From Methanomassiliicoccales archaeon (lineage in GTDB: Archaea > Thermoplasmatota > Thermoplasmata > RBG-16-68-12 > SOIM01), in contig JAUVGH010000003.1 of NCBI GenBank assembly GCA_030593885.1, forward strand, positions 3,011 to 67,010: a DNA stretch of 64,000 nt, written 5' to 3'. Under the pieces are notes generated by a model. It was not told the origin of the DNA. It was given only the letters and a program-made list of their open reading frames with translations, and did not search any database. This document shows, piece after piece, positions 46,163-47,962 of the stretch (position 1 is the stretch's first letter; each line of letters begins with the position of its first letter). The position numbers and the translations under genes are program-made.

Positions 46163-46279
46163 GTTTATACTCCCCGTTCATCAGGCGAGATGACTGAGCC
46201 CACGACAGCTCCCGCCCTCTATGTTATGGTAGATGAGTTTACTTAAGTATAATCTTTGTGCATATCCAGTATCGTTTTC

Positions 46280-46408
46280 AAAAAAAAAGAGGGGGGAGGA
46301 GGTAATCGTCACTTGCGATCTCCCGTTCCCAAAAAAAAAGGGGGGGAGGAGGTAATTGTGACCTGTGAGTTCCTCTTTCAAAAAAAAGAGGAGGGGTTAA
46401 TCGTCATC
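46280..46408. repeat. Three imperfect ~33-bp direct repeats (A8-9 + G-rich GGAGGAGG + TAATCGTCAC) with 49-51-bp periodicity
   Basis: The units start at 46280, 46331 and 46380: AAAAAAAAAGAGGGGGGAGGAGGTAATCGTCAC, AAAAAAAAAGGGGGGGAGGAGGTAATTGTGAC and AAAAAAAAGAGGAGGGGTTAATCGTCATC. The third unit contains the ftsZ stop codon. Confidence 0.85.
46380..46387 (-). terminator. Oligo-T (T8 on the transcribed minus strand) candidate archaeal terminator just after ftsZ
   Basis: The T8 run begins 16 nt downstream of the ftsZ stop. Two further T9 runs (46331-46339 and 46280-46288) follow in the repeat copies. Confidence 0.5.
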
Positions 46409-47510
46409 TGACTATCGGTATTCCCATCATTTCCTCGTGTACCTCGTAGTCCACCAGCCCCACGGTCGGGCTGAGGAGGTTAGGCGACTTGACGCCGGTG
46501 ATTATGGTCATCACCTTGATCACGCCCTCGTACTCCTTGTCCACCCTGGCGCCGAATATCACGTTGGCGTTCTCGCCCAGGCAGTCGGTTATCCCCCGGA
46601 TCACCTCGTGCGCCGTTCTAAGGCTGAGGCCCGGTCCTGAAGTGAGATGTATCAGTGCTCCGTTGGCACCTGTAAAGTCAATGTCCAGCAGGGGGTTGTT
46701 CATGGCCTCCATCACCACCATGTCCGGATCGTCCGCCGCATTCTCTGCATACAGCATGGTCGATGTTCCGCCCGTGCACATTATCGCCCTCATGTCCGCG
46801 AAGTCCAGGTTTATCAGTGAGGGCATGGTAATCGTCTCCGTGAGGCCCTTGACGACCTCTGACACCAACTGGTCCATCACGCCGAAAGCCTGATTGACCG
46901 GAAGATTGGGTACGATCTCAAGGAGCTTGTTGTTGTCCAGCACGATAACGCTGTCCGCGCTGTGCCTGAGCTTCTCAAGTCCATGGTTAGCCCTTGCGAT
47001 CCTTGATCGTTCCACTGTGAAGGGGGTGCTTGCGATAGCCACGACCACGGCTCTGGACCTCCTGGCCAGCTGGGCCACATAGGGCGCCAGACCGGTTCCG
47101 GTCCCACCGCCCATTCCGACGGTGATGAACACCAGGTCTGCGCCGGAGATCATCTTCTTCAACTCGTCCTCGGACTGTTCGGCGCATTTCAGTCCAACAT
47201 CCGGCATCCCGCCGCATCCCAGACCTCTGGTGATCGATCCACCTATCAGCAACTTGTTGTCGACTCGGATCCTGTCCAGATGCGCCTTGTCAGTGTTGAT
47301 GGCGTATGTCTCCGCTCCGTGAACTCCCATCTTGGAGAGACGGTTCACACTGTTGCTACCAGCTCCGCCGCATCCCACCACGATGATCCTGGGAGAGCGA
47401 TAGCCGAACGACTCGTCATCGTTGAATTCCTTCGTTTCATGGAGCAAGTGTTCAAATCCCATATTCCATCCCTCGAAACGTGCCAGGTCGGTGCTCGGGC
47501 ACCGCTCCAT
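46404..47510 (-). CDS. ftsZ: Cell division protein FtsZ (tubulin homologue)
   Basis: [32 protein letters not shown] and NLDFADM. An alternative start is ATG 47462, preceded by GAGGGA. Confidence 0.9.
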
Positions 47511-47564
47511 GCGTGCATCCCATAGGATTGATCTCTCAATCCCCCTTCGAGGCCAACTTCCCTT

Positions 47565-47899: not shown

Positions 47900-47962
47900 T
47901 GTCGGACAGTTCTTTTGGTTTTGTCCGACAAATGTCGGTATAGCGTCTGACATATTTAAAGG
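47900..47962 (-). promoter_or_regulatory. cdrS promoter: TATA (minus CCTTTAAATATG, 47951-47962) plus palindromic TGTC[G/C]GACA sites
   Basis: TGTCGGACA (47900-47908) and its reverse complement TGTCCGACA (47922-47930) have centres 22 bp apart. The overlapping perfect palindrome CCGACA-AA-TGTCGG (47925-47938) lies at about the expected TSS. Confidence 0.45.

Follow-up and report, generated by a model that had tools for sequence, protein, structure and literature searches.

In a 64,000-nucleotide (nt) window of DNA from a Methanomassiliicoccales archaeon (contig JAUVGH010000003.1, positions 3,011 to 67,010), the end of an ftsZ gene is occupied by three tandem units, each composed of a conserved pyrimidine-rich box and an oligo-T tract, which together span positions 46406-46280 of the minus strand, 3′ of the ftsZ stop. 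The box has a defined sequence, is rare in its genome, is deeply conserved, is held in a single orientation, and lies directly before a terminator. Judged from sequence, the array appears to be more than a simple fail-safe terminator, and its box would be an old, class-wide 3′-end signal of ftsZ transcripts and of those encoding ribbon-helix-helix (RHH) proteins of the CdrS family. We give an even chance to a reading in which the array is a tandemly amplified, RNA-level 3′-end module that combines oligo-U terminators with a sequence-specific box read by a putative factor. The U-tracts are covered by known biology; the box is the new part.

The source genome (G000) is a 2.14-Mb, 52% GC metagenome-assembled genome (MAG) of Thermoplasmata type, in which the array lies on contig C87. 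Its three units sit where a preliminary description of the window had placed them, on the minus strand and with the TGA of ftsZ inside the first, unit A (Table 1). Each box follows the core consensus (T)CACG(A/C)T-N2-CCTCC(TCC)CCCC, with the terminator next. The earlier spacing of 49-51 bp needs revision, as the units start 45 and 50 bp apart and their T-runs 48 and 51 bp apart. The intervening spacers, formerly called unrelated, contain related purine tracts that fall within the 50-bp period and pair with the preceding pyrimidine tract. Tandem Repeats Finder calls a repeat of period 50 bp (2.4 copies, 76% matches, 46277-46396), and the spacers thus belong to the repeat. Long homopolymers of this kind are scarce: 3 of the 13 T/A runs of at least 8 in the 2.14-Mb genome, and 2 of the 5 runs of at least 9, lie inside the 127-bp array, while a 17-mer box allowing at most three mismatches was found twice, compared to 0.24 expected per window. 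The triple repeat is therefore non-random and exceeds chance. It is not an artefact of MAG assembly either, since the independent Logan assembly of run SRR18936880 contains the same three units with identical homopolymer lengths.

Genome scans by regular expression and by fuzzy matching, each controlled against the reversed genome, located the box on C87 (the three copies), C43, and C37 only, with none in the reversed control (2.14 Mb). The possibility that the unit is a widely dispersed repeat, which would have undercut the preliminary description, is set aside by these scans: there are five boxes at three loci, all positionally conserved in relatives, which is not the pattern of a dispersed repeat or a miniature inverted-repeat transposable element. 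The copy at C43:60498(-), GGTCACGATTACCTCCCCCCC-T9, lies 58 nt past the stop of a 78-aa single-RHH gene whose top NCBIfam match is also CdrS. A single orthologue of this CdrS-like gene is present in 30 of 31 relatives. When its loci were picked by protein homology alone, the 3′ flank contained [TC]CACG[AC]T-N2-4-CCTCCCCCC in all 29 extracted loci, drawn from seven families (f1-f7), always in sense and never in antisense orientation. With one representative per genus, pairwise identity is 75% within the 21-nt core, versus 28% and 31% in the adjoining 21-nt windows. The distance from stop to box behind this gene is 54-69 nt in f1-f6 and 1-9 nt in f7; over all loci compared, it ranges from 1 to about 160 nt. 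What follows is either T7-T9 directly (f1, f2, f7) or a GC hairpin and a T-run (f3-f6), and one or the other always begins within 0-3 nt of the box end.

At the level of the class, the strict pattern yielded 82 matches in 75 of 301 genomes, usually one per genome, against 5 in the reversed control. All 12 loci sampled in f15, f23, f26, f27, and f33 lie behind the CdrS-like gene, five sampled loci in f21 are tandem boxes, and two more matches are chance occurrences in coding sequence. The f21 loci (L169-L173, in the AT-rich genomes G133, G074, G203, and G237) have two box-like units in tandem, CACGATATTCACCCTCCCTCCC-TATTTTTTT...TAGGGAGG...CACGATAACCTCCCCCC-TTCCCTCCC; G133 has two such loci, and the upstream gene of the f21 loci is not obvious. 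Ten class families lack a strict match and still have the C-tract and T-run. Looser searches lost specificity. The pattern CGATN1-4CCCTCCTC was discarded as too common (5-16 per genome, enriched in coding sequence), a metagenome scan with the bare 18-mer box gave 20 matches, mostly in unrelated coding contexts that lack T-runs, and a metagenome scan with the genus-specific ftsZ 3′ end gave no matches. The box is meaningful only together with its terminator and context.

Behind ftsZ, the number of units varies by lineage. Three are found in genus g1 only (three genomes, 97% protein identity), two in f1g2, f2, f5, and f4g5 (G022; at least one in G008, at a contig end), and one in f3. The best explanation of unit C, from sequence comparison, is that unit B was duplicated together with its spacer, recently and within this genus only. 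Between close relatives, the C-runs vary (C6-C8) and so do the T-runs (T8-T11), which slippage would be expected to cause. The gene downstream of ftsZ is a different, convergent one in f2 and f3, and two-unit arrays occur with a convergent neighbour; the array thus belongs to the upstream transcript and not to the promoter of the PKD-domain gene that follows ftsZ in the window. In f7, the double-RHH gene (RHH2) that elsewhere precedes ftsZ has no ftsZ behind it, yet ends in a box and terminator. Two proposals of the preliminary description fall with these comparisons. The array cannot have arisen to insulate the PKD gene, because arrays, two-unit ones among them, precede convergent genes (f2 and f3) and the box follows the stand-alone f7 RHH2. 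Nor are units B and C plain copies of the ftsZ stop region, as the box also ends the CdrS-like gene class-wide, and the ftsZ stop, TGA here, is TAA or TAG in some relatives and lies within the box in others, as in G008 of f4g5 (CGA-TAA-CCTCC). This placement is seen in some f4g5 FtsZ genes (loci L045 and L046, the G022 paralogue and G008), which read …CGA TAA CCTCCTCCCCC. In other families, the stop is followed by CGAT(G/A)A, which often amounts to another stop in the same frame (TGA CGA TGA, TAA CGA TAA). Stop-codon read-through was considered and rejected: the G000 frame is open through all three units, and relatives have an in-frame TGA or TAA two codons on as well as differing stops.

Across these loci, the constant features are the box sequence, the sense orientation, the place just before a terminator of either type, and the confinement to about three transcription units. 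The variable ones are how far the box lies from the stop and, between lineages, from the next promoter, as well as which gene comes next and in which orientation. Such a division fits an element acting on the 3′ end of the transcript. The oligo-T tracts themselves, as the preliminary description had suggested, fit the known archaeal termination signal: T8, T9, and T9 each surpass five T, on the non-template strand, at a gene end, and in sense. Archaeal polymerases terminate at oligo-T (PMC8716108, PMC13675443), several U-tracts in series raise aCPSF1 binding and termination efficiency, and consecutive termination sites occur in >50% of transcription units (PMC8716108).

In the module as we propose it, each copy would comprise a G-free pyrimidine box, (U)CACGAU-NN-CCUCC(UCC)CCCC, and 8-9 U, three times in tandem. 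Transcripts of RHH2 (CdrS-like) and ftsZ would stop at the U-tracts by the archaeal oligo-U route, either intrinsically or assisted by aCPSF1/FttA. A polymerase passing the first tract would meet the second and then the third, giving 3′ untranslated region (UTR) isoforms with one to three boxes, in which the proximal units would fold with the U-run in a loop and the last would stay single-stranded. The box, which presumably acts as RNA, would be the recognition element for a putative trans-acting factor working on RNA 3′ ends, in termination, processing, or stability. The few RNAs that share it would be the CdrS-like mRNA, the RHH2(-ftsZ) mRNA, and probably a short non-coding RNA upstream of a KaiC-like gene.

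The last of these contexts is the copy at C37:46106(-), TCACGATTACTCCCCC-TTTTATTTTTT, which sits in non-coding DNA immediately ahead of a promoter, that of a KaiC-like ATPase gene. The element is kept upstream of the same gene in f1, f2, f3, and probably f4g5. A TATA region (TTCAAAAATGACTATAAACC) and the box with its TTTTATTTTTT are conserved but enclose ~60 nt that vary, and this non-coding stretch looks like a short non-coding transcript with the box as its sole constrained part. A fourth context is the C78 small RNA candidate, conserved in f1, f2, and f5. Its stems (closing GAGGAAG/CUUCCUC plus an inner one) show compensatory changes in 4 of 12 pairs, and it bears a box-like motif, AUCACGAUGNCCCCUCCUC, in its 5′ single-stranded part and a tail, CCUCACCCCCC-U8. 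As a loose form of this motif is common in the genome (55 matches versus 11 in the control), this context is only suggestive.

As RNA, the array is predicted to fold at -35.3 kcal/mol, with z = -3.0 relative to shuffled sequences. In every orthologue with at least two units, per-sequence folds give the proximal unit a 6-12-bp pyrimidine/purine hairpin with the U-run as its loop, and leave the terminal unit unstructured. A MAFFT and RNAalifold covariation analysis of the unit A hairpin was abandoned for these per-sequence folds after its register proved misaligned. The units do not take the form of a bacterial-type intrinsic terminator, as the U-run is itself the hairpin loop in A and B, and C has no hairpin; the classical GC hairpin followed by a U-run is found after the box at the CdrS-like loci of f3-f6. 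The 3′ UTR of the CdrS-like gene is not unusually stable (z = +0.4). Within it, RNAalifold pairs a GGGAUGGG block with the C-tract through invariant G:C columns only, which carry no covariation signal. An Rfam 15 scan of the array, the C43 3′ UTR, and the C78 RNA returned sub-threshold chance matches only.

Several points weigh against the proposed module. The TCACGAT half of the box is degenerate in several class families (f8, f18, f22, f28, f29), and the box has been lost behind ftsZ in f4g9 and f6, where no units are found. The box fold in the CdrS-like 3′ UTR gained no covariation support from RNAalifold, and hairpin stabilities of the array are alike in sense and antisense, so that folding does not separate RNA from DNA. 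Upstream of the KaiC-like gene, the box is predicted to be paired in f1 and free in f2 and f3, such that its accessibility would differ by family, and the TATA region there may serve the divergent gene instead. Finally, two steps, that transcripts end at the U-tracts and that a still putative reader engages the box, are ones that we infer, and they are counted on the same side.

Table 1. Coordinates of the array, its neighbours, and related non-coding loci (window positions unless a genome and contig are given).
Feature	Position	Strand	Remarks
Unit A, whole	46406-46380	-	
Unit B, whole	46361-46331	-	
Unit C, whole	46311-46280	-	
Unit A box TGACGATTAACCCCTCCTC	46388..46406	-	holds ftsZ stop TGA 46404-46406; stop + CGAT.A.CCYCCTC kept in f1, f2, f3, f5
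Unit A T8	46380..46387	-	first oligo-U terminator candidate; predicted loop of unit A hairpin
Purine tract R1 GAAAGAGGAAC	46369..46379	-	predicted to pair with unit A pyrimidine tract, 9-bp hairpin
Unit B box TCACAATTACCTCCTCCCCCCC	46340..46361	-	followed by T9
Unit B T9	46331..46339	-	
Purine tract R2 GGGAACGGGAG	46320..46330	-	predicted to pair with unit B C-tract
Unit C box TGACGATTACCTCCTCCCCCCTC	46289..46311	-	terminal unit; predicted unstructured
Unit C T9	46280..46288	-	last terminator candidate
ftsZ	46404..47462	-	Pfam Tubulin + FtsZ_C; NCBIfam ftsZ 359.6 bits
Conserved block GGGAUGCAC, then hairpin	47513..47521	-	between RHH2 and ftsZ
RHH2, double ribbon-helix-helix gene, CdrS family, 104 aa	47565..47879	-	Pfam RHH_1 x2
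TATA-like AAAGATTATACTT	46245..46257	-	promoter element of PKD gene; CACAAAGATTATA kept in both f1 genera
PKD-domain surface protein gene, 1061 aa	42977..46162	-	Pfam PKD_4/PKD
KaiC-upstream unit	G000:C37:46176-46080; loci L234-L246	-	
C78 small RNA candidate, ~110 nt	G000:C78:10950-11067; loci L227-L233	-	own TATA box, T8 terminator

The genes around the array are arranged in the manner of a cdrS-ftsZ2-type operon: RHH2 is directly upstream of ftsZ on the same strand, with a gap of 102 nt, this synteny holds in f1-f6, and the two genes are probably co-transcribed. CdrS (NCBIfam NF058555) is the top match for both RHH proteins (E 3e-15 for RHH2), at 56 and 51 bits against a cutoff of 100, which places both below the threshold of this halo-specific equivalog. 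The ftsZ in the window is one of six FtsZ/tubulin paralogues in the genome. Comparison of orthologous loci places its start at ATG 47462 (352 aa) and not at the ATG 47510 called by the open reading frame (ORF) program, as the orthologues begin MG[FLM].., with GAGGGATGG or GGTGAGAAG ahead. Genomes of the order have about six such paralogues each, of which one alone is linked to the double-RHH gene. The PKD gene is the downstream neighbour in f1 only, and other genes take its place in f2 and f3.

Further conserved sequences accompany the CdrS-family genes. The block GGGAUGCAC (in longer form GUCAGAAGGGAUGGGAUGCAC[UCUAAC]) lies 3′ of the stop of both of them: class-wide behind the single-RHH gene (G000:C43 about 60540-60520), and with a hairpin between RHH2 and ftsZ in f1, f2, f3, f4g5, and f5. 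One possibility is that it marks a site of processing or binding. In front of the double-RHH gene, half-sites of the TGTC(G/C)GACA type separate its TATA box from its start (window 47900-47930), and similar strings, GTCAGACA / GGACATACA / GGACGTACA, precede the single-RHH gene (G000:C43 about 60850-60810); these are plausible as operators for RHH proteins and differ from the 3′ box. The single-RHH gene is followed by a gene for a small membrane protein (MLRRILMFGTVLVLLALVLLTP...; G000:C43:60430-59915, minus strand) that has a TATA box to itself. Its product falls into no Pfam family, and the synteny is kept in f1 and f7.

Among the alternatives, the one that survives best, though still rather unlikely, holds that the box copies the 3′ tail of 16S rRNA and acts as an anti-Shine-Dalgarno-like seed or as a decoy. 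As a seed, released 3′-UTR fragments or whole mRNAs, together with the box-bearing small RNA or RNAs, would pair with G-rich Shine-Dalgarno (SD) regions. As a decoy, the box would titrate a 16S-tail binder such as Nob1 or a Dim2/Pno1-type KH protein. In either case, three copies would render the ftsZ 3′ UTR multivalent. The likeness, pointed out in the preliminary description, is genuine, as a resemblance of sequence. The source MAG has no 16S gene, and the tail was taken from the same-family genome G004, whose 16S ends GGAUCACCUCCU; the units read GAU(U/G)ACCUCCU, a match at 10-11 of 12 positions, and unit 2 of G004/G005, GGAUGACCUCCU, reaches 11 of 12. Yet a 10/12 match is expected by calculation about 160 times per genome by chance, 21 matches with at most one mismatch were counted, and the base ahead of CCUCC varies by family (A, U, or C). 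GGAGG SD sites are indeed in use (170 ORF starts versus 6 in the control), but starts combining a G-rich SD with GUGA[CU] number only 4-11, and duplex energies between the box and the initiation regions of ftsZ, RHH2, RHH1, and PKD fall at the 15th-85th percentile of 1,552 genes, with the box's own genes at the 15th-75th, so that no preferential pairing is seen. A search for trans targets likewise gave no coherent set, the best-pairing regions being mostly in coding sequence and showing no theme. The KaiC-upstream unit keeps the box alone, the usual signature of a seed, and the constant 54-69 nt between stop and box behind the CdrS-like gene, together with the conserved block near the stop, would suit a processed, 3′-UTR-derived RNA. 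For the decoy, archaeal Nob1 cleaves D-site RNA in vitro (PMC3326319); on the other hand, ribosomes would vastly outnumber it.

Also unlikely is the proposal of the preliminary description itself, a plain fail-safe intrinsic terminator in which the C-rich tract acts physically only. Here, G-free unstructured RNA and strong rC:dG pairs would stand just before a full rU:dA hybrid, and TCACGAT would be kept by shared ancestry. T8-T9 is indeed as long as the RNA-DNA hybrid of an elongation complex, and the C-tract and T-run are the class-universal part of the element, present where TCACGAT has decayed (f8, f18, f22, f28, f29). Remote upstream sequence also affects archaeal oligo-T termination, according to a statement in PMC13675443 that cites Santangelo and Reeve 2006. 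Ancestry alone, however, cannot explain the conservation, as TCACG(A/C)T is 80-90% kept amid flanks that are randomised (28-31%), while FtsZ itself is only 56-63% identical between families. Moreover, hundreds of genes need terminators, but only three loci per genome use the box design, and f3-f6 keep the box though a separate GC hairpin and T-run does the terminating.

Far less probable is that the box is a DNA site for a CdrS-family RHH or another DNA-binding protein, and works as an operator or roadblock or activates the next promoter from upstream, be it that of the PKD gene, of the small membrane protein gene behind the CdrS-like gene, or of the KaiC-like gene. Two of the three box-bearing loci do encode CdrS-family DNA-binding proteins, and the direct repeats recur at a 50-bp period, or about five helical turns. 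Haloferax CdrS occupies sites 41-110 nt ahead of transcription starts (PMC8406309), and in G000 the inferred starts of the downstream genes follow the boxes by roughly 45-190 nt. Two facts weaken the operator form of the idea: the box persists before convergent genes (f2 and f3 ftsZ, f7 RHH2), with no promoter after it, and it lacks the dyad symmetry of the reported CdrS motif (PMC8406309), whose letters are given in a figure only, so that this comparison concerns symmetry and not sequence. The box is thus not the symmetric motif 41-110 nt upstream of a start that characterizes a CdrS operator. Adjacency to the terminator is conserved, whereas distance to the downstream TATA is not, and the RHH2 promoter has separate TGTC(G/C)GACA palindromes that would suit an operator better.

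A function on the plus strand, as three strong SD sites for small ORFs or as a template-strand G-quadruplex blocking RNA polymerase, is hardly credible: GGAGGAGGTAAT is an excellent SD match with a GTG 4 nt downstream in unit B and the C43 copy, and G6 and G7 runs do lie on the ftsZ template strand, but the start codon is not kept (units A and C have GTC there, and g2 and f2 lack one), neither the frame nor the length of the small ORFs is constant, their strand runs antisense into ftsZ, and of the G6, G7, and G4 runs, spaced about 45-50 nt apart, only two, 50 nt apart, reach six, with a single run in single-unit lineages. The SD-like sites noted earlier on this strand therefore have no conserved start codon or ORF in the relatives compared, and the small plus-strand ORFs behind them were discarded as candidates. 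An origin-recognition box, a dif site, and a C/D or H/ACA RNA were likewise rejected, as their defining motifs are absent.

To return to the 3′-end module, its closest known counterparts are the archaeal oligo-U terminators of M. maripaludis and T. kodakarensis, which have termination sites in succession and are assisted by aCPSF1/FttA (PMC8716108, PMC7515710, PMC11616081), and with which the array shares T-runs of at least five on the non-template strand at gene ends, U-tracts in series, and independence from a hairpin before the U-run. Those known so far lack a conserved sequence-specific element upstream of the U-tract, whereas here an ~18-nt class-conserved box precedes it in about three transcription units per genome, and few U-runs in the genome are as long as these (8-11). 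The haloarchaeal cdrS-ftsZ2 (and cdrL) operon likewise places a small RHH gene directly upstream of an ftsZ paralogue (PMC7439475, PMC8406309). It differs from the present locus, where the upstream gene encodes a covalent double RHH, a second, single-RHH CdrS-like gene lies elsewhere, and the proteins score below the CdrS equivalog cutoff; no 3′-end box has been described for the haloarchaeal operon.

More distant parallels can be drawn. Bacteria have small RNAs that derive from 3′ UTRs or carry C-rich seeds, such as RsaE/RoxS, which resemble the present element in having a short conserved C-rich motif, complementary to G-rich SD sequences, before a shared terminator, along with a variable body. 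They belong to another domain of life and another termination mechanism, and any processed RNA, chaperone, or target of the archaeal element would be putative. The histone mRNA stem-loop and the small nuclear RNA 3′ box also equip a small set of related genes with a special 3′-end element, an analogy purely, as neither has sequence or structural similarity to the box.

To our knowledge, archaeal termination signals have been thought to consist of little more than U-tracts, and we know of no gene-set-specific 3′-end element in archaea. Against this background stands a class-conserved box of ~18 nt on a few transcripts, two of which encode CdrS-family regulators and, in one case, the linked FtsZ paralogue. 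If a factor reads the box, it would open a way into post-transcriptional control of archaeal cell division, so far hinted at in haloarchaea only, where cdrS-ftsZ2 appears to be post-transcriptionally regulated (PMC8303175). A more ambitious version, quite unlikely, is a small Thermoplasmata post-transcriptional regulon, in which a 3′ element mimicking the 16S tail on the CdrS-like mRNA, the RHH2-ftsZ mRNA, and one or two small RNAs would be read by Nob1, a Dim2-type KH protein, aCPSF1, or an Sm-like protein. If true, expression of cell-division genes would be coupled to the status of ribosomes or translation, and archaea would have, in the box, a counterpart to the dedicated 3′ end of histone mRNA, with one to three copies tuning the dose by lineage. 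The lineages with 0, 1, 2, and 3 copies form a natural series for such dose effects. Even if the box did nothing more than boost termination, the archaeal oligo-U route would gain its first defined sequence-specific enhancer, and archaeal genetic tools a useful part.

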